DNA from: an uncultured Clostridiaceae bacterium | Lineage (GTDB): Bacteria; Bacillota; Clostridia; Ch29 | Assembly (NCBI GenBank): GCA_964508195.1 | Contig: CAZDSH010000001.1 | Coordinates: forward strand, 67,263-131,262 | DNA: 64,000 bases | Direction of reading: 5' to 3' | In this document: positions 7,501-61,100 of the stretch, piece by piece | Numbering within the stretch: position 1 is the first letter of the stretch | How the letters are laid out: each line of letters starts with the position of its first letter | Notes under the pieces: model-generated | What the model was told of the DNA's origin: nothing | The model's input: only the letters and a program-made list of their open reading frames with translations | The model's database searches: none | Made by a program: the position numbers and the translations under genes

Positions 7501-8145
7501 GTAGGACTTCGCTATTTCACTTTGCCTAGCTAAGGGGTCTATTTGTTTTTGTAATTCCTCTATAATATCCCCTAACCTTAACAAATTTTCCTTCGTCTTT
7601 ATAAGTTTCCTTTCGGCGTCCTCTTTCCTAGTCTTATATTTTACTATCCCCGCCGCCTCTTCAAAAACTCTGCGCCTATCCTCGGCCCTTGAGCTTAATA
7701 TTTCGTCTATTCTACCCTGGCCAATTATCGAATAGCCCTCCTTGCCTATACCCGTATCCATAAACAACTCGTTTATATCCTTTAACCTGCAACCGGTTTT
7801 ATTGAGGTAGTATTCACTTTCACCGGACCGATATACTCTCCTTGTAACCGCTACCTCTGAATACTCTATAGGCAAAAAATTATCGTTGTTGTCAAGGATT
7901 ATGGAGACTTCGGCAAAACCTAGGGCCCTTCTGCCGTCGGTTCCGGAAAATATCACATCCTCCATCCTGTTACCCCTTAGTACTTTGGCGCTTTGTTCCC
8001 CCAGCACCCACCTTACTCCGTCGGCAATATTACTTTTACCGCTACCGTTAGGGCCAACTATTGCGCCGATACCCTGATCGAACTGTAGCTTAATTTTATC
8101 GGCGAAGGATTTAAAACCCTTTATTTCGATACTCTTAAGATACAT
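4576..8145 (-). CDS. smc: Chromosome partition protein SMC
   Basis: N-terminal Walker A (GPNGSGKSN), long coiled coils, a hinge, and a C-terminal LSGGEKALTAIALLFAI signature. The ATG at 8145 has a GGAGGT ribosome-binding site; the ORF-track start at 8199 would overlap the upstream gene. Confidence 0.9.
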   Translation of the reverse strand: MYLKSIEIKGFKSFADKIKLQFDQGIGAIVGPNGSGKSNIADGVRWVLGEQSAKVLRGNRMEDVIFSGTDGRRALGFAEVSIILDNNDNFLPIEYSEVAVTRRVYRSGESEYYLNKTGCRLKDINELFMDTGIGKEGYSIIGQGRIDEILSSRAEDRRRVFEEAAGIVKYKTRKEDAERKLIKTKENLLRLGDIIEELQKQIDPLARQSEIAKSYKAVKAELKGLELSMFVKAIEKLNRQKENILQRLESLRDSITDRTKAKTRLETDIAMLENRIMQTEEELKENQENMFKNLNLMEIKKGEIKVLKQRIQSEEDSINMHTRELESIEGDIAVAKGEKEGLEQSIRDMEAQLKDKNKIINSFQVNLDYLGFQVGKEQERAEAMQARIREGLNFISDKNNEKNNLRALREAAYRRKVKLLGEIDNIATQIEGLRDKDTNYRNEYDAITAELGEQTDIKKELQRKMRAHATERANLERKLKKVSSILNSDRSKLKLLMQMEDEHEGYSRSVKALMTACDKDNNFSRGIIGPVGGLIEVKDGLERAIEIALGYSLQSIITDTEGDAKRAIEHLKSNKLGRATFLPVNSIQPRYLSEKEKKALDMKGSIGSAPDLVGCSKKIRNIIANLLGRVIVVDSLDNGINIARVYGYAFKIVTMDGDVINAGGSITGGSNFRKETGLLQRKREIKSLKEAVKYNGDTVNKLETSLHSLCATERAVNHSLVKTTQRYHELELQCIKLEEMLESNNKELLEKGAVKSRLETEKMELEAEYYGMQKEMDSIDRIIKSKEIEVKKEQEIVQTLQKENSEMKRNRENIKQQITLRRVEVAKMEQRLENMEESFQRTLLSLGRLQSSLLNKQERIRENRANIKRIENEANSIDQNIKTLIIKTDNNNVEIARLGQLKTNYIQQLKEREQESKETDKKITELERLLHGDEMQLAKLDMELNSFHDRMWNDYEVTRIQALDYQHEIEDEKAARNRIKRLKSKLRSFGNINLNAIEEYKKVKDRFDFLTSQRKDLEDAKGALNQIINEMQSAMEEQFSKQFSIINDSFGRIFRELFGGGKAQVNLADDDNMLEAGINIIAQPPGKKLQHLSLLSGGEKALTAIALLFAILSVKPSPFCILDEIESALDDTNVQRFSAFLKKLSSDIQFVVITHRKGTIEIANNLYGVTMEEKGVSKLVSIKLEDMVS

Positions 8146-8173
8146 GGTACATACCTCCGGTCTATGGGCTGCA

Positions 8174-9250
8174 TTAGCGGACACCCTTTTCAATGACACG
8201 TAAATAATCCGTTTCTATTAGGTCCCTGTCACCCCTCAGGCGCAACACGTTCCCCTTAAGGGTTTCATCCGTCATCGTTTTAATGTATAAACCCGGGTAC
8301 ATTTCCCTTAGGGTTTTAATGTTTGCTTTGTTTATCCCCTGTAGCGTGGACAAGCATCGCGGGTTAACCGTAAGGATAAGCCCCCGGGATAGGTCCATTC
8401 CCCTTTGTTCAATTATCTTAACAATAACCTTTAACACGAGCTTCGCGTCCACCAGTTGCCTAAAAGACGGATGAAAAGGCCCTGCTATTACTTCCGCCCC
8501 CTCGCTTATCAAGTCGGTAGGTTGTAGGCCCATCCTTATAATTTTTATTCTTTCCTTAATAAATATTTCCGTAAGCCGGACACAGATATCTATCGCTCCA
8601 TGCAATGGTAATGGGGTATAAGCCCCGCTTTTATAAAGAGTTTCCATCTTCGTACCCCTTATAACTAATGCCGGGTATATTCTAACGAAATCCGGTTCCA
8701 GGGCACAGATTTCTGTAGCGGTATTAAGCTCTGTAATTTCGTAGGAGCCGGGTAATCCTATCATCATCTGCAATCCTAGCTTAAATCCATGATTTTTTAT
8801 CAACTTCGAGGATTTTACTACGTCCGCTGCGACATGTCCCCTTTGGCTTAGAGCGAGTACCTTATTGTCCATGGATTGTACACCAAGCTCTACCGTATCC
8901 ACACCAAAAGCCTTTAGATCATGGAGAATTTTTTTGTTGATATAATCCGGCCGCGTTGAAAGCCTTATACCGTCTATTAGGCCTGCCATCTTTGCGTTAT
9001 ATGCCTCATTTAAAAGTGCCCTTTGCATATCCATTGGAATCCCGGTAAAGCTACCGCCGAAAAAGGCTATTTCGATCCTTCTTGTTTTATCATGAAAAGT
9101 GGAGATGTATTCCTTTACCGTGGGTAAAATTTCTCCGGGGGTAACAGGCTTTTCTTGGCCCGTTATCTTGTTCTGACTACAAAAAACGCATGCATGGGGA
9201 CAACCTATATGGGGTACAAAGAAGGGTATTATATAGCGTTTATCTGTCAT
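8174..9250 (-). CDS. Radical SAM protein (TIGR01212-like family)
   Basis: CPHACVFCSQ is a CxxxCxxC-type cluster near the N-terminus. This family is commonly found between rnc and smc in Clostridia. Confidence 0.7.
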   Translation of the reverse strand: MTDKRYIIPFFVPHIGCPHACVFCSQNKITGQEKPVTPGEILPTVKEYISTFHDKTRRIEIAFFGGSFTGIPMDMQRALLNEAYNAKMAGLIDGIRLSTRPDYINKKILHDLKAFGVDTVELGVQSMDNKVLALSQRGHVAADVVKSSKLIKNHGFKLGLQMMIGLPGSYEITELNTATEICALEPDFVRIYPALVIRGTKMETLYKSGAYTPLPLHGAIDICVRLTEIFIKERIKIIRMGLQPTDLISEGAEVIAGPFHPSFRQLVDAKLVLKVIVKIIEQRGMDLSRGLILTVNPRCLSTLQGINKANIKTLREMYPGLYIKTMTDETLKGNVLRLRGDRDLIETDYLRVIEKGVR

Positions 9251-9252
9251 GT

Positions 9253-9972
9253 TTAATCCCTAAGCCTTTCCAAGGCGATTCCGGCGGCTTTTTGTTCCGC
9301 CTCCTTTTTACTTTTACCCGTACCTTCGCCGTAGAGTTTGTTATTAATATAAACCCCTACATGAAAGGTTTTATCGTGATCTGGCCCGTGCTGTGATATG
9401 ACTTTATATTCAACGATGTTATCCCCGGAGGCCTGAATATCTTCCTGAAGCATAGTTTTACTGTCTACGTTAAAATTATTTTCTATTAATTGGGATAACT
9501 TCCCTTCTATATACCGAATTATGAGGGTCTTAGCCCTGAAATACCCGCCGTCCAAATACACAGCCCCTATTACCGCTTCAAAGGCATCTGCGAGGACAGA
9601 GGGCCTTTCTCCGCCGCCACACATCTCCTCGCCCTTGCCCATCCGCAAAAAATTGCCCAACTTTAAATCGGCCCCATGGGTCCCTAGGGCCTGGCCCATT
9701 ACTAGGGATGCCCGCATCTTGGTCAGTACGCCCTCGGAACACCCCTCGAATTTATTGTACAGGTATTCACTGGCAACCATTTGCAGTACGGCATCCCCTA
9801 AAAATTCAAGCCTCTCATTGTACTCATCCCTCGCCATATTCTTTTCGTTAGCATAAGAACTATGGGTAAGGGCAGCATTTAACAGTTTAATATCCTTAAA
9901 TTTATACCCAAGCCTTTTTTGTAGCGTTTTAAGGCCGCGTAGTCTGGCATCATCCATAACAGAAACCGGCAC
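9253..9972 (-). CDS. rnc: Ribonuclease III
   Basis: RNase III signature ERLEFLGDAVL plus a C-terminal dsRBD. Position between fabF and smc. Confidence 0.9.
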   Translation of the reverse strand: MPVSVMDDARLRGLKTLQKRLGYKFKDIKLLNAALTHSSYANEKNMARDEYNERLEFLGDAVLQMVASEYLYNKFEGCSEGVLTKMRASLVMGQALGTHGADLKLGNFLRMGKGEEMCGGGERPSVLADAFEAVIGAVYLDGGYFRAKTLIIRYIEGKLSQLIENNFNVDSKTMLQEDIQASGDNIVEYKVISQHGPDHDKTFHVGVYINNKLYGEGTGKSKKEAEQKAAGIALERLRD

Positions 9973-13345: not shown

Positions 13346-14295
13346 AACTTCCTCCCTAAAATATTTCCCGAAATTTTTATAACTTCCTCCGCTTCCCTTA
13401 GGATATCTTCCATTATTTTATTTACAGGCTTTATATCCCCTATAAGCCCGGCAATTTGCCCGCTCATAACGGAACCGTCTTTAATGTTACCTTCCACCAC
13501 CGCTTCCCGTAACTTACCCGCTCCTAATCTTTCTAATTTTTCCGCCGGCGCACCCTGGGCCTCTAATTTTTCGAAGGCCCGGGTCAGCCTATTTCTAAGA
13601 CACCTTACAGGATGGCCCGTACTTTCGCCTGTTATTATTGCATCCCTGTCCCTGGCCTTTAAAAGAGCGTCTTTATAGTTTTGGTGTACAGTACACTCTG
13701 TCGAACATACAAATCGCGTACCCATCTGCACCCCCTCGGCACCTAGGGCTAGAATCGCAACTAACCCCCTGCCATCGGCTACACCGCCAGCACCTATAAC
13801 AGGAATGTCCACCGCATCCACTACCTGGGGCACAAGGCACATAGTGGTCAGTTTGCCTACATGTCCACCGGCTTCGGTGCCCTCGGCTATAAGGGCATCG
13901 GCACCGACTAATTCCATACGCTTTGCAAGGGCTACGCTGGGTACTACGGGAATGACCTTTGCACCCATAGCCTTTAAAGGTCCTATATATTTGCCGGGGT
14001 TCCCGGCACCGGTGGTCACAACCCTGATTTCATGCCTTATTATTACCTCTATGACCTCATCCACGAAGGGGGATAATAACATCACATTAACTCCAAAGGG
14101 CTTATCCGTAAGCTCTTTTGTTTTTAATATTTCATTTTCCACTACATCCCCGGGGGCATTCCCCGTGCCTATGATCCCGAGGCCTCCGGCCTCGGAAACC
14201 GCTGCTACAAGCCCAGCGGTAGCTATCCATGCCATACCCCCCTGAAGGATTGGACGCTCTATGCCCAATATTTCGCATATCCTAGTATGTATCAC
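13336..14295 (-). CDS. fabK: Enoyl-ACP reductase II (FMN-dependent, nitronate monooxygenase family)
   Basis: NPD/2-nitropropane dioxygenase-like TIM barrel (GGMAWIATAGL...GAGG), embedded in the fab operon. Confidence 0.8.
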   Translation of the reverse strand: MIHTRICEILGIERPILQGGMAWIATAGLVAAVSEAGGLGIIGTGNAPGDVVENEILKTKELTDKPFGVNVMLLSPFVDEVIEVIIRHEIRVVTTGAGNPGKYIGPLKAMGAKVIPVVPSVALAKRMELVGADALIAEGTEAGGHVGKLTTMCLVPQVVDAVDIPVIGAGGVADGRGLVAILALGAEGVQMGTRFVCSTECTVHQNYKDALLKARDRDAIITGESTGHPVRCLRNRLTRAFEKLEAQGAPAEKLERLGAGKLREAVVEGNIKDGSVMSGQIAGLIGDIKPVNKIMEDILREAEEVIKISGNILGRKLWV

Positions 14296-14322
14296 TTATA
14301 TCCCTCCCATTCCAAGCCTATA

Positions 14323-15321
14323 TCAGCGGTCCCAATTAATCGCACAGGAGCCCCAAGTAAGCCCTGCCCCGAAACCAACTAGCACTATATTGTCGCCACC
14401 CTTAATAAGCCCCCTCGTTCGTGCCTCATCCAAGGCCACGGGTATAGAGGCCGAGGACATGTTGCCATATTTATCCAAGTTAACGAATATCCTGTCGTTA
14501 TCTATTTTAAGCCTTTTAACGGCGGATTCCACTATTCGCCTATTTGCCTGATGGGGCACAATAAGATCAATATCTTTGAGGGTTAAACCGGCCTTTTTCA
14601 AAACGCCGAGGGTGGCCCTTGGCATAATGTTTACGGCAAATTTATAAACTTCGCCGCCATCCATATGTATGAAATGTTTGCCGGATTTAACGGTATCCAC
14701 GGTGGCGGGCATTCTGGAGCCGCCGGCGGGGAGCGTTAGAACTTCTCCCTTCCAACCCTCTGCACCTAAAAGGGAGGCGAGTATACCCGTACCTTTTTCA
14801 ACTTTACTTAGCACCGCGGCCCCTGCACCATCACCGAACAGGACGCAGGTGTTTCTATCCTCCCAATTGCATATCTTAGTAAGGGTTTCAGCTCCTATTA
14901 CCAGTACAATTTTTGCATCACCGGTGGAAATAAACTTTTCCCCCAGGGAAAGGCCGTATATAAACCCCGTACATGCGGCCTGTACATCAAAGGCGAAGGC
15001 ATTTCTAGCACCAAGGTTAGATTGGACTATACAGGCCGTCGACGGGAAAGCCATGTCCGGTGTTGCTGTAGCTACAATTATCCCATCTATCTCTTTTTCA
15101 GAAACCTCTGCATCGTTCATTGCCTTTAACGCCGCCGCCGTGGCTAAATCCGAAGTAGCAGTATTGGAATCGCTTATCCTTCGTTCTGAAATACCCGTGC
15201 GGCTCTTTATCCATTCATCGCTGGTATCTACCATTTTCTCCAAATCAAAATTTGTTAATATTTTTGTCGGTAAATGCCTACCTGTTCCAATTATGCCAAC
15301 GGATTCTACAGTTCTAATCAT
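14323..15321 (-). CDS. fabH: 3-oxoacyl-ACP synthase III
   Basis: FabH Cys context (AACTGF) and a C-terminal GFGAGLTWG motif. The ATG at 15321 follows a GGAGGA ribosome-binding site; the ORF-track start at 15348 lies inside that site. Confidence 0.9.
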   Translation of the reverse strand: MIRTVESVGIIGTGRHLPTKILTNFDLEKMVDTSDEWIKSRTGISERRISDSNTATSDLATAAALKAMNDAEVSEKEIDGIIVATATPDMAFPSTACIVQSNLGARNAFAFDVQAACTGFIYGLSLGEKFISTGDAKIVLVIGAETLTKICNWEDRNTCVLFGDGAGAAVLSKVEKGTGILASLLGAEGWKGEVLTLPAGGSRMPATVDTVKSGKHFIHMDGGEVYKFAVNIMPRATLGVLKKAGLTLKDIDLIVPHQANRRIVESAVKRLKIDNDRIFVNLDKYGNMSSASIPVALDEARTRGLIKGGDNIVLVGFGAGLTWGSCAINWDR

Positions 15322-16315
15322 CGTTATCCTCCAATTGTATATGGGCACTTATTTTTGATTCTATACCTTCATCTATAAACTTTATTGCTTGCATTATTGC
15401 ATTTTCTATAGCAAGGGCATCGGAACTGCCATGGGCCTTTATACAGCCGCCTTTTATACCGAGGAAGGGTGCACCGCCGTACTGTTTATAATCGAGGGTA
15501 TCTTTAATCCTAGTGAGCCCGGGTTTTAACATAAGGGCCGCCATCTTTGTAAGGGTATTTGCGGTAAACTCCTCTTTAAGCTGTGCAAACAACGACATTG
15601 CCAGACCTTCAGTAAGTTTTAATATAACATTACCGACAAAACCGTCACAAACTAACACGTCGGCTACCCCGCTTAGTGCGTCCCGGGCTTCTATATTGCC
15701 TATAAAATTAAGGGAAGACTTTTTAAGCAGCCTGTAGGCATCCTTTGTAAGAATATTTCCTTTGCTCTTTTCAATACCAATATTTATAAGGGCAACCTTA
15801 GGGGATTCTATATCCATTATGCCCTCCATATAGGCAGAACCCATGAACCCGAACTGTAAAAGATTTATCGGCTTACACTCAGCGTTGGCCCCTGCATCTA
15901 TAAGCATAACGCCACCGCCCTCTGTAGTGGGCAATATCGGGGCTAAGGCCGGGCGGTCTATACCTTTGATCCTACCTACGCGGAGCAAAGCCCCTGCCAG
16001 AAGGGCTCCCGTGTTACCCGCGGAAATAAAAGCATCGGCCTGCCCGTTCCTAACCTTTTGTAGGCCTACTACCATTGAGGAATCTTTTTTCTTTTTAATC
16101 GCCTCAACCGGCGCATCGTCCCCTTGGATTACTTCGTCTGTGTGTTGTATTTCTATTCTTTGGGTTTTATATCCTTTAAGAGCATCCTCAATATCCTCGC
16201 CCTTACCGAGGAGCAAAAGTTTTAGCCTTTCATTCCTATGCAGTGCCCCTACGCATCCTTTAACGATCTCCAAGGGTGCATTATCGCCACCCATAGCATC
16301 GACGGCTATTATCAT
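15314..16315 (-). CDS. plsX: Phosphate acyltransferase PlsX
   Basis: MIIAVDAMGGDNAP is the canonical PlsX N-terminus. Sits between fapR and fabH. Confidence 0.9.
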   Translation of the reverse strand: MIIAVDAMGGDNAPLEIVKGCVGALHRNERLKLLLLGKGEDIEDALKGYKTQRIEIQHTDEVIQGDDAPVEAIKKKKDSSMVVGLQKVRNGQADAFISAGNTGALLAGALLRVGRIKGIDRPALAPILPTTEGGGVMLIDAGANAECKPINLLQFGFMGSAYMEGIMDIESPKVALINIGIEKSKGNILTKDAYRLLKKSSLNFIGNIEARDALSGVADVLVCDGFVGNVILKLTEGLAMSLFAQLKEEFTANTLTKMAALMLKPGLTRIKDTLDYKQYGGAPFLGIKGGCIKAHGSSDALAIENAIMQAIKFIDEGIESKISAHIQLEDNDD

Positions 16316-16333
16316 TATAATATCCCTCCTACC

Positions 16334-16900
16334 CTACGCCTCTAGGGCTACTAGAATAAATTTACCCCGAAACATTTCCTGCATTTTGTGCTTAATTTTT
16401 ACCCATACAAAAAATTTGTTACCCCTTCTTCTTGTAACCTTTGCCTGGGCGATGAGTTTTTGGCCCGAACGTACCGGATGCTTATATTTTATGTTCGCCA
16501 CTCCTATAAGGGCGACATTTGCATCTATTACCGCTATTGCAAGGGATTCCGCTTGGGCATATATGAACTGTCCGCGGACTATATTAGTCTTTTCGAAGGC
16601 CATTGAACTATCGGTCTCCAACATAGATATGCCCCGTTCGCCGAGGTCCACGTCTAATAGCTCACCGACGATTTCTTTGCCGGATATAGTTCTGACCTTT
16701 GCGTATGTACCCTCCGCCACATTTTTTATCCTTTCACGGAGCTCCGGTATTCCAAGCTCCATCCTATCAAGTCTGATGGTATGTATGCTGACCTTAAAAT
16801 ACTCGCTTAACTCTTCGTCGGTTAAAAAGGGATCCTTTTTAATCTCTTCAGACAGGGCCCTTTGCCTTTCCTTTTTATTCTTGCCCCTATACCTTCCCAT
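16334..16900 (-). CDS. fapR: Fatty acid and phospholipid biosynthesis regulator FapR
   Basis: 188-aa protein with an N-terminal HTH and a C-terminal hotdog thioesterase-like fold. First gene of the fapR-plsX-fab operon. Confidence 0.85.
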
Positions 16901-17132
16901 AAAAAACCCCTCCCTCTCCTATACGGTCCAACAGTACATTGATGGCCTTTATCCGGGGCTATCATTATGACTTGGGCATATCACCTGATACTAACATTAA
17001 GTATACATTATGTTTTTTATTAAATCAATGAAAATTTCCATAAAAAATCAAGGGACCCGCCATAGCCCTTGTTCCATTTGGGCTTAGGCGAACCCCTTTA
17101 TGCAGATAACTTCGTGTACATAACACAGAATC

Positions 17133-19214
17133 TTAACTACATATATATTCCCCGGCATCTATATATCCCCCTAGGAGGTTAAGGTATTCTTCCCCCTCTA
17201 GGGACAATCTGGTGCCCTTAGGTCCCCTGTGGATCACCACTAAACCGTATTGCGCCAATATACCTAACCTGTTTCGTATCATCTGTTCCGTCATCTTTAT
17301 CCGACCTTTACAACGCTGGGCGATACCCTTTCTGCTAAGGTAAACATCCCCCCTATCCTTTGCGTTTTTAAGTACCCCGAGGATCGTAGCCAACTCCTCC
17401 AGGGGCATTTCCCCCTCTATGGCCCTTATCACTTTCTCCCGGCGCATAAACCTATCCTTCGGCGCAAAGGGTAAATCCTTACTCCTTACAGGACCGTCGC
17501 CTACGATATGGTATAGATATTCGATTACGTTTTCCAATTCACGAATATTACCCGGCCAATCGTATTCCATAAATTCTTCCATAGCTTCCTCGCTTATTTC
17601 CATCGCCTCCCCCTTCGGAAACTTTTCGAGCATCTTTTCTATAAGTAGTGGTATATCTTCTTTATGTTCCCTTAGAGGCGGTATCCGTATAGGCAGCACC
17701 TTTAACCTATAGAACAGATCCTCCCTGAACTCTCCGGCACTGACAAGTTCTTCGAGGTTTTTGTTTGTAGCCGCGATGATCCTTACGTCGATGGGAATAA
17801 TTTTAGTGCCGCCGATGCGCAATACCTCTTTTTCCTGTAAGACCCTTAATAACCTTGCCTGTATTTTTAGGGAAGCATCCCCTATTTCATCGAGGAAAAT
17901 GGTTCCCTTATGGGCCTGCTCGAATAACCCCGCGTGTCCGCCCTTCCTCGCCCCGGTAAAGGCGCCTTCCTCGTAGCCAAAGAGTTCGCTTTCTAGAAGG
18001 TTTTCCGGGAGCGCTGCAAAACTCACCGCTACGAAGGGCCCGTATTGCTTGCCCGAGGCCTTGTGTATAGCATGGGCGAAAAGTTCCTTACCGATGCCGC
18101 TTTCGCCGAGTAAGAGCAAAGTGGAATTGCTCCTTGCCAATTTTCGCGCGATCTCCTTCGTTTCGACTATTTGTTTACTCTTGCCCACTATATTTGAAAA
18201 CCCATATTTAGAGGTATGGCCCCTTTTCATCAGATTCGCCCTTACTATATTCTCCATTTCAATTATTTCTGATAAGTCCTTAAATGTTATAATAACCCCG
18301 TTATTGACATCGTTTTTTATAATAGGCATCATCGTAAGGAGTATTTTTTTGCCCATTATTTCGTGTACTTTTCTATAAAGGCCGAAATTTTTACCCAAAA
18401 GGGCCTTCGCTTCAAAGTCCAATATATCGTCTAAATTTATTTCACCGACGTTTTTTTCGCCCTTTTCCGAAAACAACTTATTTGCATTCTCATTGCTAAA
18501 CATAACATTGCCGTCGCTGTCTATACCCACTATTCCGTCGTTTATGACGTTGAGTATTGTATGTAATTGTTTCATTATATTATCATTCGTTTCAAGGGCC
18601 TTTACCACTTTTTTGCCGGAATAAACGAAATCCTGTAAAAACCTGGCGGACAATAGGTTTGTCCTTTCATCGAGTATATCGAGCTTTATCATTATTTCGG
18701 TAATAGTAGTAAGATCTATTTTGCTAAAGCTTAAATCTATTATATTTTCCACATATTCGGGGACCATGTGGATCTCCCCCGTAGTTATTGCGTAATCCGC
18801 ATGTTGGGTAAACCTCTGCCCCGGGTAATAGGGATACATCCTTATATGGTTTATACCCAGCTCCTCAAGGAGGGATATGGAGTTTTCCGCAAGGTATTTA
18901 TTCACATCGACAAATAGCACGTCCTCCCCCTGGGGTATGCGGAGCACGTCTTCGAGTTTTGAATGGTTCAAAGATCTCCGGGCTACGAGTATTTCCGCCC
19001 GGGGGTCTATATATTTTAACGCTGTCTCTTTGAGGTATTCATGACATATAAGTACGAGGGTGTCGTAGATCTTTTCCTCGATACCCTCTAGGATAGAGTA
19101 TCCCTTTATCGCAACCTCGGGTCCTAAAAGATTAGTCAACTGGTTGATCACATTTTCTTTATGCTTTTCAGAACGGGTTATTATGGATAATCCAAATCGT
19201 GTAACATCTTGCAT
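17133..19214 (-). CDS. Sigma-54-dependent transcriptional activator (enhancer-binding protein): unknown N-terminal domain, PAS, AAA+, and an atypical C-terminal domain
   Basis: Central AAA+ sigma-54 interaction domain with Walker A (GESGIGKE), the GAFTGA motif (EGAFTGA) and a Walker B/arginine-finger region. PAS-like segment around residues 210-320 of the protein. The first roughly 200 residues are an unrecognised domain. The C-terminal roughly 110 residues lack the Fis-type HTH. Confidence 0.85.
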
Positions 19215-19471
19215 TTACTGTTTCACCTCCTTCCTTCTATATTATACCAGAGAGTTAACCGGTTTTAAAGGGTTTTAAAAAAATAACCTTTAAGACCCAA
19301 TAAAGCGTTCAGCCCCGTGGAAATTAACTCCATGAACCTTTGGTTTATTATACCCTATTTTACTTATACGACCTATTCTACGTATCCCTGTATGCCTAGG
19401 CCGTGTTTCCATAATGAATGTTTATAATCCATCCCCTTGAATGTTTCTCAAAAGTATCCCTATACATTAAT

Positions 19472-19487
19472 TGGCACGAGTATTGCA
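19472..19487 (+). promoter_or_regulatory. Sigma-54 (-24/-12) promoter TGGCACG-N4-TTGCA upstream of kamA
   Basis: TTGGCACGAGTATTGCA matches the RpoN consensus TGGCACG-N4-TTGCW exactly. It is divergent from, and adjacent to, the enhancer-binding protein gene. Confidence 0.75.
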
Positions 19488-19735
19488 CATTTACTAAGTT
19501 GCTGATCAGCAAACCTAAATAAGGTAAGGGATTCGTTAACGAAGGTTTAACGTTTTTATCGCTTTTTAAAAAAACTTTCCGTATTCTTAGGTCGCGGTAT
19601 AGCTTTGTTTAACCGATGCCCGGGGAGCCCGTTATTTCGGACTTTAACCTTTAATAATACGGAAATGAGCATAACATTGTAAATGCGTTATATATATAAA
19701 TAGTAGAATTTTTATCTAGATTAGGAGGTTAAAAG

Positions 19736-20998
19736 ATGGAAAATTCAAAATTAAGCTCAAGGGAAATATCCCTTCAAAGGGCGGATGTTTTAAAGAGTCG
19801 TATAGATCCTTATCTTGAAGCAAAGTTAGACATTCACTCCGGCTTGGATCAAAAAGATGAAATAAGGGCAAGGCAGGCTAGGATTAAAGAGATTATGGGC
19901 GCTAGCGAAGATCAGTGGAACGACTGGAATTGGCAAATAGATAACCGGGTAACGGATTCCGATACCCTTGCCAAATTTCTTGAACTAACTACTAAACAAA
20001 AGAAGGATATTGATGCTGTAGCAGCGAAGTTTAGATGGGCTATTTCCCCATACTTTCTATCTTTGATAGAACCTAGCGGGAATCATTATGAGCATCCTAT
20101 ATACTTGCAGTCCGTTCCCACGGGTCTGGAGCTCGTAGAAGGTATCGGTAGCGCAGATCCCATGGCTGAAGAGTTTACGAACCCTGCACCCTGCATTACC
20201 CGCCGGTATCCCGACAGATTGATTATAAACGTTACGAACCAGTGCGGAATGTACTGTCGCCACTGTCAAAGGAGAAGGAATATCGGAGAAGTGGATGCAC
20301 CACAACCTAAGGAGAAGCTGCAGGCGGCCGTAGATTATATTAGAAACACGCCGGAGATCAGGGACGTACTTATAACCGGCGGCGATCCTTTCACCTTCTC
20401 CGACGAGATGCTAGATTGGCTCCTTGGCGAACTTGATAGTATTCCCCACCTTGATTTTAAAAGAATTGGCACAAGGATGCCCGTTACATTACCCCAAAGG
20501 GTAACGCCAGAACTTTGTGATATGCTCAAAACACATCATCCTTTATTCATAAACTTACAATTTAACAGTCCTATGGAAGTATCCGAGGATTCCTTAAAGG
20601 CCTGCGAAATGTTAGCCGATGCAGGGATACCCTTAGGGAACCAGGCAGTGCTTCTAAGGGGCGTAAACGATCATCCCTTTGTGATGAAAAAGCTATGCCA
20701 AGAGCTGTTAAAGGCACGGGTAAGGCCGTACTATATATTCCACGCCAAGGGTGTAGTGGGGACTCTACACTTTAGGACTAGCGTAGATATAGGCATAGAA
20801 ATTATGGAACATCTAAGGGGTTATACCTCGGGGCTTGCTATTCCGACGTTCATCGTAAATGCCCCAGAGGGTAAGGGCAAAACGCCTATGCTACCCGAAT
20901 ACGTTATCTCCCATGGCAGGGATACCATCACTATAAGGACCTGGGAAGGCGAAATAATAGAGTATCCAAACAAAGATGCCGATGTAGAGTACGAATAA
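19736..20998 (+). CDS. kamA: L-lysine 2,3-aminomutase (radical SAM, PLP-dependent)
   Basis: 420-aa protein with the KamA-type CxxxCxxC motif (NQCGMYCRHCQRRR) and a full-length C-terminal domain. EpmB-type enzymes are shorter. Ribosome-binding site AGGAGGT. Confidence 0.85.
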   Translation: MENSKLSSREISLQRADVLKSRIDPYLEAKLDIHSGLDQKDEIRARQARIKEIMGASEDQWNDWNWQIDNRVTDSDTLAKFLELTTKQKKDIDAVAAKFRWAISPYFLSLIEPSGNHYEHPIYLQSVPTGLELVEGIGSADPMAEEFTNPAPCITRRYPDRLIINVTNQCGMYCRHCQRRRNIGEVDAPQPKEKLQAAVDYIRNTPEIRDVLITGGDPFTFSDEMLDWLLGELDSIPHLDFKRIGTRMPVTLPQRVTPELCDMLKTHHPLFINLQFNSPMEVSEDSLKACEMLADAGIPLGNQAVLLRGVNDHPFVMKKLCQELLKARVRPYYIFHAKGVVGTLHFRTSVDIGIEIMEHLRGYTSGLAIPTFIVNAPEGKGKTPMLPEYVISHGRDTITIRTWEGEIIEYPNKDADVEYE

Positions 20999-21102
20999 AA
21001 TTATCAGGATAAACATACATCAATATGCTCCAGGTACAGTCTAAATAAAAACTATTTTTGGTAATATATATATACCAAAAAATAAATTAAGGGGGTATAT
21101 TC

Positions 21103-22140
21103 ATGAGAAAAAGACTAGCATTGTTGTTAGTGCTCCTATTTGCGTTTTCTACTATACTGGTAGGATGCACTACACCAGCAGACACCAATGGGGAAGATGA
21201 TGCACCGGCGCCGGTCCAAAAGCAACAGATCTCCATATTAACCGGTTCTACCGGCGGTACGTACTTCGCTTTAGGCGGGGCCATGGCCAATACTTGGAAT
21301 GAATACCTAGATAATGTACAGGTGACGGGCCAACCCAGCGGCGCATCCGTGGAGAACATTAACCGTCTCCATGCCGGCGAGGTAGAGCTTGGTATGTCTA
21401 TGAACAACATTGCCGACGATGCCTGGAACGGGGTAGGCGCCTTCCCGGGGGAACAACGGGGTTTTAGGACTATAGGCGTTATTTATCCCGAGGTTTATCA
21501 GGGCGTAGCTATTAAAGGGTCTGGCATTAAAACCCTCGAGGATGTAAAGGGTAAAAGAGTAGCCGTAGGCCCTGTTGGGAGCGGTACAGTAGTGATGACC
21601 GAGACTGTGTTCAATGAAGCGGGCATGTCCTTTGATGATGTAAAAGCAAACTATGACGGCTTTGGCGATGCTGCCAGCAAGATGAAGGATGGACACTTAG
21701 ATGCGGCCTTCAACGTATTAGCAGTTCCCGCCGCAGCGATACTGGATATACAATCGGATCGTGAAATAGAAATAATCGAAATAGGCGATGATCTATACGA
21801 AAAAGTTAACGCTAAGTTCCCCTATTTCAGCCAATATGTGATACCCGCTGGAACCTATGGGAATGAAGAGGACAAATTAACGGTAAACTGTGTTGCTGCA
21901 TTGTACGCGTCCCCGGATATGTCCGAGGATTTGGCCTATGACATAACGAAGGTATGGTTTGAGAAAACTGCCCATACCGCGGCAGCCCACGGTGCAGCCC
22001 AGTGGCTTGCAGACGAACTCGCCGCAGGGAATAAGGACGTCATGCTCGATGGCATAACGACGCCGCTACATGTCGGGGCCTATAAGTATTTCAAAGACAT
22101 AGGCGTAGACGTCCCGGATATGATTAAACCTATTGATTAA
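21103..22140 (+). CDS. TAXI-family TRAP transporter solute-binding lipoprotein
   Basis: Lipoprotein signal peptide with lipobox (LVGCTT). ILTGSTGGTYFALGGAMANTWN is the TAXI (TRAP-associated extracytoplasmic immunogenic) signature. Confidence 0.8.
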   Translation: MRKRLALLLVLLFAFSTILVGCTTPADTNGEDDAPAPVQKQQISILTGSTGGTYFALGGAMANTWNEYLDNVQVTGQPSGASVENINRLHAGEVELGMSMNNIADDAWNGVGAFPGEQRGFRTIGVIYPEVYQGVAIKGSGIKTLEDVKGKRVAVGPVGSGTVVMTETVFNEAGMSFDDVKANYDGFGDAASKMKDGHLDAAFNVLAVPAAAILDIQSDREIEIIEIGDDLYEKVNAKFPYFSQYVIPAGTYGNEEDKLTVNCVAALYASPDMSEDLAYDITKVWFEKTAHTAAAHGAAQWLADELAAGNKDVMLDGITTPLHVGAYKYFKDIGVDVPDMIKPID

Positions 22141-22293
22141 TCAATAAGGGATGAAGGCCGGGAACCGTACAGTCCCCGGCCTTCATAATTAATATAATAT
22201 TACATAGCCTTAAATGTAAAAGTAACGCCTAATTTATTTTTTTGGTTTTCATAGGAGATTCCTCTAGGTAATTTTAACATAGGAGGTAGGAAT

Positions 22294-24291
22294 ATGGCGG
22301 AAAGGCAGAAAGATGACAGCATTATATTAGACGAAATTAAACTGGATGAAGAAAAATCCGAAGAGATTTTAGCTAAATACGATCGGGAATTCGATTTCAG
22401 AAGGCTTAGCGGGCCCTTAGAGAAATTCGTTTTTTTATGTGCGGTTGCTTGGTCCTTGGCCCAACTTTACACTGCGGCCTTCGGCGTTTTCCCTTCAACA
22501 TTACAAAGGGCACCCCACGTAGGTATCGCCCTTGTACTTATTTATATATTGTACCCGGCTAAAAGGGGCAGCAAAAACAATAAAGTACCGTGGTACGATT
22601 TTGTATTTGCCTTCCTAGGTGTTGTAGTCTCTTCGTACCATGTGATTTATTATAAAGAGCTAGTTTGGCGTGCAGGGGTTTACACTACAACGGATATGGT
22701 AATAAGCGTTATTGCCGTCTTATTGATAATAGAAGCAACTAGAAGAATGGCTGGACCGGTCATCGTTTCCCTAGCATCCTTTTTCCTGCTCTATGCGTAT
22801 TTCGGCGATTATTTTCCATCCTTTATGGCCCATCACGGCCTAACTTTAAAGAGAATAGTAATATTCCAATGGATAAGCACCGAGGGTATTTTAGGTATAC
22901 CCATTCAAGTATCATCGACCTTTATATTCCTTTTTATGCTTTTTGCGACCTTTTTAAAGAAAAGCGGCATTGGGGATTGGATGACGGAAATAGCCGTAGG
23001 ATTAACGGGCGGCGCTATCGGCGGGCCTGCTAAGGCCGCGGTAATAGCAAGCGCAGCCCAGGGTACGATCTCCGGTAGCTCTGTTGCCAATACTGTAGGT
23101 ACTGGCTCCGTTACGATTCCCCTTATGAAGAGCATCGGCTACCGTAAAGAGTTCGCCGGTGCCGTTGAAGCAGCGGCCTCTACAGGCGGCCAGCTTATGC
23201 CCCCTATAATGGGCGCTGCAGCATTTATTATGGTGGAGTTTCTTAATATCCCCTACAGAACGATCGCTATTTCAGCGGCGATACCCGCAGCCCTTTATTT
23301 TACGGGGATATTTATAACGGTGCATTTAGAGGCAAAAAAGGCAGGCCTTTTAGGTATACCTAAAGAACGACTGCCGGATTGGAAACAGCTCGTTAAGAAA
23401 AAATGGTTCCTTGCCACGCCGATAGCGGGTATTGTCTACCTCTTGGTCAAGGGATACACTCCGATGCTGGCTGCTTTTTATGCCATTATACTGTGTATCG
23501 CTGCGTCAATGATATTGAAAGAAACCCGTATGTCAATAATGGATATTATTTCGGCCCTAGAGGAGGGGGCCAAGTCCGCCCTCCCGGTAGTTGTAGCCTG
23601 TGCCACTGCGGGTATAATAGTAGGCATAGTTACGTTGACGGGCCTAGGCATGAAGATGTCCGGCGGCCTTGTAAGATTAGCCGGAGGCAATGTCTACCTA
23701 ACTATGCTCTTTACGATGATAGGTTCGCTGATACTAGGTATGGGCGTTCCCACTACGGCAAACTATATCATCCAAGCAACGGTTTCGGCGCCGGCGTTAA
23801 TGGTCCTAGGGGTTCCGCCCTTAGCGGCCCATTTGTTTGTGTTCTATTTCGGTATAGTGGCGGATATTACTCCCCCTGTAGCCCTGGCAGCCTTCGCCGG
23901 TTCGGGGATAGCCCAATCGGACCCTTTAAAGACTGGATTCGAGGCCTTTAAACTGGGTTTTGCCGCATATTTAGTGCCCTATATATTTGCCCTATCCCCT
24001 ATCCTTGTATTGATAAGACCGGAAGGGCTTTCAACATGGGGCTTTGCCTTTAGCGTAATCCTCGCAATCGGTACTGCACTTATAGGTATGCTATGTATAG
24101 GCGGTTCGACTACTAATTATTTTGTAACCAATGACAAATGGTATGAACGTGTCCTACTCCTTATTGCAGGGGTTACTTTGATACACCCGAGCTTCCATAC
24201 AGACCTGTTCGGAGCCGTTGTGTTAGCTGGGGTTTGGTTCCTGCAAACAAGCCGGGTAAAAAAAAGGGCGGCAGCGGAAAAAAGCATATAA
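22294..24291 (+). CDS. TAXI-type TRAP transporter fused permease subunit (fused 4TM/12TM DctQM-like)
   Basis: 665-aa polytopic membrane protein of the TRAP fused-permease family, immediately downstream of the TAXI solute-binding gene. Confidence 0.8.
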   Translation: MAERQKDDSIILDEIKLDEEKSEEILAKYDREFDFRRLSGPLEKFVFLCAVAWSLAQLYTAAFGVFPSTLQRAPHVGIALVLIYILYPAKRGSKNNKVPWYDFVFAFLGVVVSSYHVIYYKELVWRAGVYTTTDMVISVIAVLLIIEATRRMAGPVIVSLASFFLLYAYFGDYFPSFMAHHGLTLKRIVIFQWISTEGILGIPIQVSSTFIFLFMLFATFLKKSGIGDWMTEIAVGLTGGAIGGPAKAAVIASAAQGTISGSSVANTVGTGSVTIPLMKSIGYRKEFAGAVEAAASTGGQLMPPIMGAAAFIMVEFLNIPYRTIAISAAIPAALYFTGIFITVHLEAKKAGLLGIPKERLPDWKQLVKKKWFLATPIAGIVYLLVKGYTPMLAAFYAIILCIAASMILKETRMSIMDIISALEEGAKSALPVVVACATAGIIVGIVTLTGLGMKMSGGLVRLAGGNVYLTMLFTMIGSLILGMGVPTTANYIIQATVSAPALMVLGVPPLAAHLFVFYFGIVADITPPVALAAFAGSGIAQSDPLKTGFEAFKLGFAAYLVPYIFALSPILVLIRPEGLSTWGFAFSVILAIGTALIGMLCIGGSTTNYFVTNDKWYERVLLLIAGVTLIHPSFHTDLFGAVVLAGVWFLQTSRVKKRAAAEKSI

Positions 24292-24333
24292 ACGAGTATA
24301 TAGCTTTGGATTAAATACAAAACCATTAGATAT

Positions 24334-24368
24334 AAAAATAGTAACGGTTAAACCGTTACTATTTTTAT
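24334..24368. terminator. Bidirectional rho-independent terminator between the TRAP permease and rpmF
   Basis: Perfect hairpin AGTAACGG-TTAAA-CCGTTACT flanked by AAAAAT on one side and ATTTTTAT on the other. Confidence 0.7.
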
Positions 24369-24370
24369 GT

Positions 24371-24547
24371 TCACTCAGTTTTTAGCACTTCCTTGCCCTT
24401 GTAATAACCGCATGTGCGGCACATCCTATGGGGCATCATAGCTTCATGGCATTGCGGGCATACGATCAACCCGGGCTTTTTTATCTTCCATTGGGCTAAC
24501 CTATGATTTCTCCTCGATTTTGACGTTTTCCTTTTTGGTACCGCCAT
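24371..24547 (-). CDS. rpmF: 50S ribosomal protein L32
   Basis: Hand translation gives MAVPKRKTSKSRRNHRLAQWKIKKPGLIVCPQCHEAMMPHRMCRTCGYYKGKEVLKTE. It is below the 60-aa cutoff of the ORF track. Conserved position downstream of yceD. Confidence 0.85.
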   Translation of the reverse strand: MAVPKRKTSKSRRNHRLAQWKIKKPGLIVCPQCHEAMMPHRMCRTCGYYKGKEVLKTE

Positions 24548-58014: not shown

Positions 58015-60807
58015 TTATTGGATATTCCCGGCACATCTTTCACATATGCTGGGGTGTTCCTTTACGTTTCCTACTGTCGTACTAAAATTCCAGCATCTTT
58101 CGCACTTGTGTCCCTCGGCGTGATTAACCATAAGGCTTAAACTTTCCAACTCCTCGCCCTTGATAGCCCCTTGGCCCGCTTCTTCACCGGGCGGGTTAAC
58201 CTTTACCTGGGAAACTATAAATAAGGAAGGCAGCTCCTTCTCTAAGGGTTTCAAGAATTTGTAAAGCTCATCGTCCGTATAAAGTTCTATTTTAGAATCC
58301 AAAGAATGACCGATTACCTTGTCAGCTCTGGCCTTTTCCAGTGCTCTTCCCACCTCGTACCTGATTTCTAATATTTTTTGATACTTCGTTTCTAATTCCT
58401 TATTCAAAAGTGCCGGTTCAGGCTCCGGGAATTCAACTAGTTGGACGCTGGCCGGTCTAGAGGCTGCATCCCCGGGCATATATCGCCATATTTCTTCTGC
58501 GGTGAAGGACAAAACCGGTGCCACAAGCCGTACAAGTTTTGATAATAACCGATATATCACCGTCTGCGCCGCCCTTCTTTCTAGCGAATCCCCTTTACAG
58601 GTGTACAGCCTATCTTTTATTACGTCGAGATAGAAGTTGCTCATGTCCACTACACAAAAATGATGCATCGCATAAAACAGTATATGAAATTCGTATTCCC
58701 TATAAGCGTCTACTACCTTTTCCAGCAATTTCTCTCCCTTATGAAGGGCCCATTTATCTAAATCGGCTAAATCGTCGTATTCGACCATATCCCTATCGGG
58801 GTCAAAATCGTACAGATTGCCTAACATAAACCGCGCGGTATTCCTTATCTTTCTATAGACCTCAGATAATTGTTTCAATATCCGGGGGGATATACGTATA
58901 TCCGTTTGATAATCCGCTGAGGCAACCCATAATCTTAATATATCTGCGCCGTACTCTTTTATAACATCCATGGGATCTATGCCGTTACCTAGGGATTTGG
59001 ACATTTTTCGTCCTTCGCCGTCTACTACAAATCCATGGGTTAACACTTCACGATAGGGTGCTTTTCCTCTAGTAGCCACTGCGGTTAATAGCGACGATTG
59101 GAACCATCCCCTGTGTTGGTCGCTACCCTCTAGGTACATAGTAGAGGGCCATTCCAAATCCGGCCATGTTTCCAATACTGCGGCATGACTCGAACCTGAA
59201 TCGAACCACACATCCATAGTGTCTGTCTCTTTCCTAAAATTGTTTGCACCACAATGTTCGCATTTGATATCTTCAGGGAGTATATCCTTTGCTTCTTTTT
59301 TAAACCATGCATCGGAACCCTCTGCAGCGAACAAATCCCTTACGGCGTGGATAGTATCGTCATTTATTATATGGTGACCACATTCGTTGCAATAGAATAT
59401 GGGAATAGGCACTCCCCATACCCTTTGCCGTGAGATACACCAATCATCCCTATCCCTTACCATATTGCTTATTCTTTCCTCTCCCCAATGGGGTATCCAT
59501 TTTACATTTCCTATAGCTGCAAGGGCTTCATCCTTAAAGCTCTCCACCGACGCGAACCATTGCTCCGTAGCCCTGAATATAACCGGCCCTTTGCAGCGCC
59601 AACAATGGGGATAAGAGTGCGTCATGCTAGAATGGGCAAACATAGCACCTATCTCCACAAGATCTTCAACTATCACATCGTTAGCCTTTGCATAGTACAT
59701 CCCTTGGTATTTACCCGCCGATTCAGTGAAATACCCTTTATCATCCACTGGATTCAAAGCTGATAGCCCGTACTTCATCCCGATTAAGAAGTCCTCTTCA
59801 CCGTGTCCCGGCGCAGTATGCACGCATCCGGTACCCTGCTCCAACGTAACATGGTCCCCTAATATTACAATTGAGTCCCTTTCTATAAAGGGATGCTTGC
59901 AGATTAACCCTTCAAGCTGCTTTCCGGCAAACTCAGCCAGTACCTTGTAATCATCAAACTTACCTAATTCCTTAATCTCTTCGGCCTTATCCTTAGCCAC
60001 AACATAATAGGCATCCCCCATCTCCATCAAAATATATTGGAAATTTTCATTAAGGGCGATTGCAAGGTTAGCGGGTAGCGTCCAGGGCGTTGTAGTCCAA
60101 ATCATAACATAGGCTCTACTAAGATCGTCTATCAAACCGTTAAACAATCCCTTGTCATCGGATACAGGGAAGTTAACGTATATTGAGTGGGTCCTATGAT
60201 CGCTATATTCTATCTCCGCCTCGGCTAGGGCTGTTTCGCAGCTAGGGCACCAGTACACCGGTCTTAAACCCTTATAGATATAACCCTTTTTAGCCATTTC
60301 GCCGAACACTTCTATCTGTTTTGCCTCAAACTGCGGTTTAAGCGTAAGGTAAGGGTTATCCCAATCGCCTCTGACCCCCAACCGTTTGAACTGACCCCTT
60401 TGTTTATCCATATATTTAAGCGCATAATCCCGACATAGTTGCCTGAACCCTACTACGGTTTTATCGTGTCTGTTTATACCTAAGGATTTTATTACTTGGG
60501 TTTCTATAGGCAGCCCATGGGTATCCCATCCGGGTACATAGGGACAATGATAGCCGTCCATTGATTTGCTTTTTATTATAATATCCTTCAATATTTTGTT
60601 AAGGGTTTGCCCTAGGTGTATATCACCATTAGCATAGGGAGGGCCGTCATGTAATATGAATTTTTTATTACCTTTTTGTTTTTGAAGGTTCTTCTTATAA
60701 ACGTTTTCCTTCTCCCAAAAGTCTATGATTTCCGGTTCCTTTACAGGCAAGTTAGCCCTCATCGGAAACTTTGTTTTTGGTAAATTTAATGTTTTCCCAT
60801 AGTCCAT
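58015..60807 (-). CDS. ileS: Isoleucyl-tRNA synthetase
   Basis: 930-aa protein with HLGQ (the HIGH motif), KMSKS, and C-terminal zinc-binding Cys (CERCWN...CERC). Confidence 0.95.
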   Translation of the reverse strand: MDYGKTLNLPKTKFPMRANLPVKEPEIIDFWEKENVYKKNLQKQKGNKKFILHDGPPYANGDIHLGQTLNKILKDIIIKSKSMDGYHCPYVPGWDTHGLPIETQVIKSLGINRHDKTVVGFRQLCRDYALKYMDKQRGQFKRLGVRGDWDNPYLTLKPQFEAKQIEVFGEMAKKGYIYKGLRPVYWCPSCETALAEAEIEYSDHRTHSIYVNFPVSDDKGLFNGLIDDLSRAYVMIWTTTPWTLPANLAIALNENFQYILMEMGDAYYVVAKDKAEEIKELGKFDDYKVLAEFAGKQLEGLICKHPFIERDSIVILGDHVTLEQGTGCVHTAPGHGEEDFLIGMKYGLSALNPVDDKGYFTESAGKYQGMYYAKANDVIVEDLVEIGAMFAHSSMTHSYPHCWRCKGPVIFRATEQWFASVESFKDEALAAIGNVKWIPHWGEERISNMVRDRDDWCISRQRVWGVPIPIFYCNECGHHIINDDTIHAVRDLFAAEGSDAWFKKEAKDILPEDIKCEHCGANNFRKETDTMDVWFDSGSSHAAVLETWPDLEWPSTMYLEGSDQHRGWFQSSLLTAVATRGKAPYREVLTHGFVVDGEGRKMSKSLGNGIDPMDVIKEYGADILRLWVASADYQTDIRISPRILKQLSEVYRKIRNTARFMLGNLYDFDPDRDMVEYDDLADLDKWALHKGEKLLEKVVDAYREYEFHILFYAMHHFCVVDMSNFYLDVIKDRLYTCKGDSLERRAAQTVIYRLLSKLVRLVAPVLSFTAEEIWRYMPGDAASRPASVQLVEFPEPEPALLNKELETKYQKILEIRYEVGRALEKARADKVIGHSLDSKIELYTDDELYKFLKPLEKELPSLFIVSQVKVNPPGEEAGQGAIKGEELESLSLMVNHAEGHKCERCWNFSTTVGNVKEHPSICERCAGNIQ

Positions 60808-60811
60808 TCGT

Positions 60812-61100
60812 TACCACCTCAATCGTTTTTTTAGAAAATAAAAAAGTCCCTTTATATATAAAGGGACGGGCATCGCCCGCGGTACCACCCTGTTTGGCTG
60901 TAATACCCGCTTTATTTTAGCTATTGTATCGGATAGCACCGGCGGGGCTTACTGTTTATACCTTTCAGCCCGCTGCTCACGAGGGATTTTCACTATTATA
61001 CGTTACCACATCCCACCATACCTGTGGCTCTCTGTCAACGGTTTAATAGATACTCTTCTCGATCATCGCTACTTCTACTGTATATTTGTGTTACGAAGAT
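60812..61100 (-). ncRNA. T-box riboswitch leader of ileS
   Basis: The minus strand contains the T-box antiterminator sequence CAGGGTGGTACCGCGG. It is followed by the terminator GTCCCTTTATATATAAAGGGAC plus TTTTTT. A stem-I AGAGA motif lies upstream, and an AUC (Ile) triplet is present in the specifier region. Confidence 0.75.

Follow-up and report, generated by a model that had tools for sequence, protein, structure and literature searches.

What a 7.4-kb block of genes lying between fapR and rpmF does for its host, and on which substrate it acts, is the question raised by a locus on contig CAZDSH010000001.1 of an uncultured Clostridiaceae bacterium. The whole stretch of DNA analysed, termed the window, is 64 kb long. 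The block comprises a gene for a sigma-54 activator on the minus strand and, divergent from it on the plus strand, an operon that encodes an aminomutase, a TAXI-family TRAP solute-binding protein and a fused TRAP permease. A first-pass annotation described the block as a compact sense/import/isomerise module, labelled the aminomutase gene kamA (lysine 2,3-aminomutase) and proposed lysine or beta-lysine as a candidate substrate. The architecture stands, with at least 16 loci (the window among them) showing it, but the lysine or beta-lysine substrate does not, in view of the model scores and residues of the enzyme. The first gene of the operon is predicted to encode a glutamate 2,3-aminomutase (Eam), which would interconvert L-glutamate and beta-glutamate. 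The module as a whole probably couples uptake of a glutamate-family ligand to this interconversion, a reading drawn from sequence comparison and held with moderate confidence.

The eam gene (19736-20998, plus strand) encodes a 420-amino-acid protein of the radical S-adenosylmethionine (SAM)/pyridoxal phosphate (PLP) type. It scores 654.2 bits against the equivalog model TIGR04368 (cutoff 650) and stays below the cutoffs of both the lysine model AblA (TIGR03820; 469.2, cutoff 525.4) and the arginine aminomutase model (347, cutoff 600). Its membership in the KamA family is seen from a TIGR00238 match of 321 bits and a LAM_C domain. Alignment to the solved lysine 2,3-aminomutase (LAM), 2A5H, pairs C170/C174/C177 of the window protein with C125/C129/C132, R179 with R134 and K382 with K337. 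Asp293 and Asp330, which hold the epsilon-amine of lysine in the solved enzyme, are K338 and N375 in the window. All 120 nearest homologues have lysine at the 338 position and 119 of the 120 have asparagine at the 375 position; many of them are named glutamate 2,3-aminomutase in their source records. As both epsilon-amine aspartates are replaced and the lysine model is not reached, lysine and beta-lysine were rejected as substrates, and the kamA label was abandoned.

The TIGR04368 equivalog is built on the Eam of Clostridioides difficile, which is likewise a radical SAM/PLP enzyme of the KamA family. That enzyme was reportedly characterised by Ruzicka and Frey in 2007 (cited in PMC7835215), and the Lys/Asn pair is reported to be its signature; the TIGR04368 score does not depend on this attribution. 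The window gene differs from its C. difficile counterpart in that it heads a TAXI-TRAP operon with a dedicated sigma-54 activator, and its score is barely above the cutoff.

The first-pass annotation also pointed to the absence of further lysine-pathway genes, and this was borne out. No kamDE, kdd, kce, kal or ablB is present among the window open reading frames (ORFs) scanned, which span about 12 kb on either side of the block and a sample farther away and which are all housekeeping genes. Nor do these genes occur in the recurrent neighbour clusters of 77 Eam loci or among the individually scanned neighbours in six Eam loci. Their absence is to be expected if the enzyme is Eam and not KamA. 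Other candidates for downstream pathway genes were likewise sought and dismissed, with none among the window ORFs scanned and only lineage-specific neighbours in relatives.

A module in which imported lysine is turned by KamA into beta-lysine, to feed a pathway encoded at another site, would be in keeping with the family membership of the enzyme, and the kamA gene of B. thuringiensis is sigma-54 and KamR dependent (PMC4428206). Set against the failed AblA model and passed Eam model, the replacement of both aspartates by Lys and Asn in the window and in the nearest homologues, and the missing partner genes among annotated neighbours, such a module is extremely improbable. Known LAM loci (kamA-kamDE-kdd-kce-kal, ablAB and B. 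thuringiensis kam) share a homologous aminomutase with the window, and the B. thuringiensis kam locus also shares a sigma-54 promoter and a dedicated activator, KamR (PMC4428206). The window differs from these loci in its substrate-binding residues, in the lack of partner enzymes and in having a transporter in place of the catabolic or acetylating genes. A lesson for annotation is that the label 'KamA-family' does not imply lysine.

Whether the transporter genes belong functionally with eam can be judged from gene order in relatives, a neighbourhood comparison that the first-pass annotation had called for. In 14 of the 77 species-level loci with Eam, the transporter genes follow eam immediately, in the order Eam-TAXI-(DUF1850)-TRAP; a search that began with the TAXI protein added a fifteenth, L082 (Eubacteriaceae). 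By neighbour-joining, the linked Eam proteins fall into two separate clades, one formed by the window's clade together with L082 and the other by L022, a Thermoanaerobacteraceae metagenome-assembled genome (MAG), and L023, a Vulcanibacillus. The linked operons occupy at least four chromosomal neighbourhoods: the fapR/rpmF slot, the side of a tRNA gene, other slots (L004, L010, L011) and a site with a GlnK/GlnL-like two-component system (L022). In two loci that lack the activator, L008 and L009, the tRNA gene is immediately upstream of eam (341-411 and 9646-9716, respectively), and the operon therefore has a different integration site there. This recurrence in two Eam clades and at least four neighbourhoods supports, at the level of gene order, a functional coupling of eam, TAXI and TRAP over chance adjacency. 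A transporter with an unrelated ligand that merely shares a promoter with eam might be pictured from the size of the TAXI subfamily, whose members are found in varied contexts; with the same gene order recurring as described, fortuitous adjacency is very improbable.

The activator is confined to the window's clade. Its gene (17133-19214, minus strand) encodes a 693-amino-acid sigma-54 enhancer-binding protein (Sigma54_activat, PF00158, E 2.7e-66), on the strand first assigned to it. The protein consists, in order, of a bilobed alpha/beta domain (residues 1-196), a PAS domain (about 215-330), an AAA+ domain with the GAFTGA motif (342-509), which is read as 'EEGAFTGA' in the translation, and a winged-helix-like C-terminus. 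The C-terminus matches only CggR_N, below threshold; about half of 50 members of the activator family match HTH_12 winged-helix models. No Pfam model matches residues 1-196. These residues are nevertheless matched by 396 representative proteins at E < 1e-10. A word-indexed homologue search with the N-terminus returned five fragments only. An AlphaFold2 model of the N-terminal region (pLDDT 94) displays the bilobed alpha/beta fold and has weak structural neighbours only. Against the PrdR model NF041552 the activator scores 384 (cutoff 795), with the match limited to residues 168-583.

A sigma-54 promoter (-24/-12), TGGCACGAGTATTGCA, is at 19472-19487 on the plus strand, as had been predicted. 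It conforms exactly to TGGCAC-N5-TTGCA, is the sole exact match to TGGCAC-N5-TTGCW in the 64-kb window and lies 248 nt upstream of the first ATG. A TGGCAY-N5-TTGCW motif precedes eam in every one of the 16 loci with the activator and in none of those without it; activator and promoter co-occur in 16 of the 16 loci where both are readable. Activator, promoter and the eam-TAXI-TRAP unit are thus conserved together in at least 16 loci, the window counted.

The divergent intergenic region between the activator gene and eam is 521 nt long. Three elements are conserved across the 16 activator-bearing intergenic regions and the remainder is not: the promoter, a GGTT...AACC block and a palindrome. The GGTT...AACC block (19260-19293) is a candidate upstream activating sequence (UAS), predicted from conservation, with GGTT half-sites and an inverted repeat, I3, of the form AAGGGTT-N10-AACCTTT. 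In a 10-locus alignment no other block upstream of the promoter is conserved. The candidate UAS of the window precedes the promoter by 180-210 bp, and in relatives with shorter intergenic regions the block is nearer to it. A sigma-70-like promoter for the activator gene (19241-19269, minus strand; TTTAAA-17-TATAAT with TG), detected by consensus scan only, overlaps the candidate UAS.

The perfect palindrome GCTGATCAGC (19501-19510) lies 14 nt past the -12 element, at about +3 to +13 of the predicted transcript. All 16 loci with the activator have it at an identical offset, with one mismatch in L010, even though its flanks have diverged. The sequence occurs once in the window and is absent from activator-less Eam-TAXI loci; the 1.55 Mb of loci fetched contain only three further copies. 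Its position suits an operator better than an enhancer.

The arrangement of fapR and rpmF bears on how the block came to be where it is. On the left the block is flanked by fapR (16334-16900, minus strand; NF003359 FapR, 256.8 bits, cutoff 183) and on the right by the convergent rpmF (24371-24547, minus strand), whose translation starts MAVPKRKTSKSRRNHR and which is followed by yceD and ackA according to profile annotation of the window ORFs. A metagenome scan for FapR relatives served as the test for insertion. In three metagenome loci in which FapR is 58-67% identical (L100, L101, L102), ackA-yceD-rpmF directly adjoins fapR. Because these more distant relatives have the two gene groups side by side, the 7.4-kb block is an insertion, in agreement with the initial proposal. 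Where FapR is at least 82% identical, the block is present in every locus that reaches far enough upstream of fapR; L095 stops about 1 kb upstream of fapR. Scars of a mobile element were looked for and rejected: the two borders of the block show no direct or inverted repeat of at least 9 nt, profile annotation of ORFs gave no integrase or transposase inside or beside it, and there is no anomaly in its base composition. The insertion thus appears to be an old one that has become fixed in the window's clade.

The unit is closed by a bidirectional intrinsic terminator (24329-24371), common to the operon and the convergent rpmF, as the first-pass annotation had it. The hairpin folds at -23 kcal/mol on the plus strand and -19.4 on the minus strand (z -8.4 and -6.5), and none of 200 shuffled sequences folds equally well. 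With an A-run and a T-run at its flanks, termination is possible in both directions.

Outside the linked operons, eam is found under a different kind of control. In 10 of 23 loci with stand-alone eam that were scanned with Rfam, a cyclic di-AMP (c-di-AMP) riboswitch immediately precedes the gene. These loci belong to Syntrophomonadaceae and Dehalobacterium MAGs, and the aptamers are of the ydaO type (L031 4778-4915, L032 9764-9896, L036 9670-9801, L037 2898-3028, L038 2253-2393, L042 1-57, L046 157-295, L047 7933-8069, L051 1700-1837 and L052 9777-9911). The Breaker laboratory has listed eam as one of the genes that follow Na+-I riboswitches (PMC9337991), and beta-glutamate is a compatible solute accumulated by methanogens (PMC1224877). 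From these c-di-AMP and Na+-I riboswitches, stand-alone eam appears tied to osmotic signalling, which is consistent with beta-glutamate as a compatible solute. The window enzyme is of the same family as the riboswitch-controlled ones, but its operon has a protein activator and a transporter and no riboswitch, whereas the riboswitch-controlled genes stand alone. The comparison thus shows at least two regulatory kinds of eam, one riboswitch-controlled and stand-alone, the other transporter-linked and, in the window's clade, sigma-54-controlled; two physiological uses are suggested by this division.

What the transporter carries is addressed through its binding protein. The TAXI-family solute-binding protein (21103-22140, plus strand; 345 amino acids) matches TIGR02122 at 274.9 bits (cutoff 84) and has a lipobox-like LVGC, seen by eye. 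The fused permease (22294-24291, plus strand; 665 amino acids, DctM and DUF3394) matches TIGR02123 at 734.6 bits (cutoff 321). Both scores uphold the original identification of these two genes. The closest solved relatives of the binding protein are 1US4/1US5, 8U79, 9OZ4 and 8S4J, which include the L-glutamate binders TtGluBP (1US4) and VcGluP (8S4J); phmmer matches to glutamate TAXI proteins range from E 1e-37 to 3e-31. When the ligand contacts of VcGluP (PMC11574862) are transferred onto the window protein, four are retained: Tyr45 as Tyr54, Ser75 as S82, Glu125 as E130 and Gly156 as G161. The nearness of the two L-glutamate binders and these retained contacts argue for a glutamate-family ligand. 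A Thr at position 157 agrees with TtGluBP. The VcGluPQM system of V. cholerae and TtGluBP of T. thermophilus thus resemble the window in the TAXI fold, the fused permease and the retained contacts (PMC11574862). The window differs in four contact residues, Gln93 to Met, Tyr200 to Asn, Val44 to Thr and Gly203 to Ala, and in the coupling of its transporter to an isomerase.

Several points weigh against the reading that couples glutamate-family uptake to alpha/beta-glutamate interconversion. Gln93 of VcGluP is replaced by Met100 and Tyr200 by Asn204. In VcGluP, Tyr45 and Gln93 are the two positions at which loss of the residue lowers affinity more than 200-fold, and the Gln93Ala substitution causes a 990-fold loss (PMC11574862). 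With Gln93 replaced, the window site is therefore predicted not to be a canonical L-glutamate site. In addition, the Met100/Asn204 signature is present in 120 of the 120 nearest TAXI homologues, whether Eam-linked or not, so that the ligand is not readable from first-shell residues. The TIGR04368 cutoff is exceeded by 4 bits only. No c-di-AMP riboswitch is present in any of nine TAXI-linked operons scanned (the window and eight others), and rpoN was not seen in the 64-kb window. Lastly, the sigma-54 activators characterised in Firmicutes serve catabolic operons that are induced by their substrates (PMC6615313, PMC4428206).

The Met/Asn signature was considered as a possible mark of Eam-linked, perhaps beta-glutamate-specific, binding proteins. 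The Eam-linked TAXI proteins of L022 and L023 do have it, though distant. This idea was rejected on the 120 of 120 count, and by its residues the signature would mark a large TAXI subfamily. Four of five TAXI homologues with inspected neighbourhoods have no Eam nearby: the TAXI gene adjoins an aminotransferase gene with hom and aspartate-kinase genes in L084, NicX/CN-hydrolase genes in L086 and unrelated genes in L088 (Natronincola). A histidine kinase and a YcbB (GlnL-type) response regulator are found at TAXI-DUF1850-TRAP genes in L022 (15465-17868) and in L089 (4297-6463), with eam present at the former and absent at the latter. For this TAXI subfamily, the kinase and YcbB neighbours hint at a signal of the glutamine/glutamate type.

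Several of these observations bear on the direction of the Eam step. Among amino acids, only L-glutamate and L-glutamine are known to be bound by TAXI proteins. GlnL-type systems are found beside TAXI relatives (L022, L089), the widespread binding-site signature argues for a common ligand, and Eam is treated as a beta-glutamate producer in published work. On these grounds L-glutamate or glutamine may be imported and then converted to metabolically inert beta-glutamate, a proposal that is tentative and falls a little short of probable.

The reverse flow would make the locus a scavenging system. The TAXI-TRAP transporter would import beta-glutamate shed by neighbouring methanogens or syntrophs, the activator would sense it, and Eam running in reverse would give L-glutamate, which would enter central metabolism with no further dedicated enzyme. 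In accord with this, the module is complete without a downstream enzyme in all loci that carry it, and the Firmicutes sigma-54 activators with PAS sensors, such as KamR, GabR and PrdR, are catabolic and substrate-induced (PMC4428206, PMC6615313). Gln93, the residue of VcGluP that holds the alpha-amine, is among those replaced in the window protein, and the osmotic riboswitch control is a property of stand-alone eam (10 of 23) and of none of the nine TAXI-linked operons. In L011 the permease gene is followed by 2-oxoacid:ferredoxin oxidoreductase genes, and in L009 an aminotransferase gene is upstream. The names of related MAGs and contigs often point to anaerobic digesters, where possible sources of beta-glutamate would be Syntrophomonadaceae with riboswitch-controlled eam and methanogens, which accumulate the compound (PMC1224877). 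What speaks against a beta-glutamate-specific site is the presence of the same signature in TAXI proteins without Eam nearby, and, further, TAXI relatives are linked to GlnK/GlnL-type sensors and the literature search found no published beta-glutamate uptake or catabolism. Scavenging is accordingly regarded as possible but rather unlikely, and we lean slightly towards the alpha-to-beta direction.

A third fate for the product would be an undescribed glutamate fermentation, in which imported L-glutamate would first become beta-glutamate and would then be broken down by enzymes whose genes lie elsewhere, with glutaconate or 3-oxoglutarate as possible intermediates. Lysine fermentation, which starts with an aminomutase step, would be a parallel. 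BcrAD_BadFG/DUF2229/HGD-D genes recur at eam in six loci of neighbour cluster 7 and in L082, and the regulation is of a catabolic type (PMC6615313). However, no candidate downstream enzyme is present in the window ORFs scanned, or consistently in the clade, and according to a recent survey no beta-glutamate-deaminating enzyme has been reported (bioRxiv 10.1101/2025.11.21.689712). This fermentation is judged improbable.

The reading that best fits the locus is thus that of a self-contained, inducible module under one-component regulation, which couples glutamate-family uptake to alpha/beta-glutamate interconversion. Around the observed gene identities, promoter, conserved linkage and insertion, the following mechanism may be envisaged, in which ligand, inducer and direction of the Eam step are conjectural. 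The activator, with its bilobed N-terminal domain and PAS domain as sensors, would bind near 19260-19293 and, on sensing its ligand, remodel the sigma-54 RNA polymerase at 19472-19487. The resulting transcript would encode Eam, the lipoprotein TAXI binding protein and the fused TRAP permease, and would end at the bidirectional terminator. The transporter would then import the ligand, and Eam would interconvert L-glutamate and beta-glutamate inside the cell.

The betTIBA genes of E. coli, which provide for import of a precursor, choline, and its conversion to glycine betaine, offer a likeness: regulator, transporter and converting enzyme or enzymes are in one divergent unit, and no further pathway is needed. 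The proteins are unrelated and betTIBA has a repressor instead of a sigma-54 activator, so that the comparison is an analogy only.

Full-text literature searches found no paper in which a TAXI-TRAP transporter is linked to an aminomutase, and a reconstruction of sigma-54 regulons for Clostridiales lists no such regulon. These results agree with the earlier statement that the module is not a described operon type. As far as checked, its components belong to known families and their combination is undescribed in the searchable literature. Nor was a description of a beta-glutamate transporter, sensor or catabolic route found in the literature.

The function of Eam in bacteria is little known, and beta-glutamate has been documented mostly as an osmolyte of methanogens. 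Three proteins of the locus are candidates for study: the binding protein, the activator with its one-component regulation, and the enzyme, for which the direction of the reaction is what counts. Through them a transporter and a sensor are connected, as candidates, with beta-glutamate for the first time. If the somewhat doubtful scavenging scheme were correct, this would be the first system dedicated to acquiring beta-glutamate, with the activator as a beta-glutamate sensor and Eam running backwards. A compatible solute would then be exchanged by cross-feeding in anaerobic communities, and TAXI proteins would gain a new class of ligand. In the field of TRAP transport, the locus draws attention to a large TAXI subfamily in which Met stands in place of Gln93.

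Some further features of the operon and its leader may be described. The leader, of about 240 nt (19488-19735, plus strand), lies downstream of the sigma-54 promoter. Its length is not conserved, the distance from promoter to ATG being 126-305 nt in relatives with an aligned start codon. Relative to the short-leader loci L002, L003, L005 and L013, the window has about 130 extra nt within 19514-19690, and the extra stretch holds an inverted repeat (19576-19589 and 19652-19665). In L007 and L093 this position is occupied by a different insertion. A riboswitch or attenuator in the leader was considered and rejected, as Rfam gave no match for 19200-19800 with E values allowed up to 10 and nothing is conserved beyond the palindrome.

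A DUF1850 gene is present between the binding-protein and permease genes in most relatives. It is absent from L004, L010, L012 and the window, where the gap measures 154 nt (22141-22293) and a 26-residue DUF1850 remnant (E 1.3) overlaps the start of the permease. A strong hairpin with no T-run (22151-22186, plus strand; -24.8 kcal/mol, z -5.4) lies 3' of the binding-protein gene and may stabilise or attenuate the transcript. On the minus strand a terminator-like hairpin with a T-run (17053-17068), found by consensus scan only, is 3' of the activator gene.

The neighbours of eam vary among relatives. In L011 the operon continues on the same strand into genes for 2-oxoacid:ferredoxin oxidoreductase subunits (13633-16359). 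L009 has, at 7855-9033 and 14915-18340, genes for an aminotransferase (upstream), an Asp/Glu racemase and a D-Ala-D-Ala-ligase-like protein, as well as a second TAXI/DUF1850 pair. Large BcrAD_BadFG and DUF2229/HGD-D proteins are encoded next to eam in L018, L020, L021, L027, L030 and L035 (cluster 7), with the cluster 7 gene upstream of eam in four of the six, and genes of this kind are downstream of the TRAP permease in L082 (11508-14509). They occur as a 1429-amino-acid fusion or as three genes, and resemble proteins of the activase/dehydratase or double-cubane-cluster type. L003 and L012 are contigs of one MAG, SMAG_U9083, and their eam genes are 84% and 88% identical to that of the window. 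As the two genes differ in identity, this bin probably mixes two strains or species.

Elsewhere in the window, a T-box leader (60859-61075, minus strand; 127.8 bits) is upstream of an ORF of 930 amino acids (58015-60807, minus strand), which presumably encodes an aminoacyl-tRNA synthetase.

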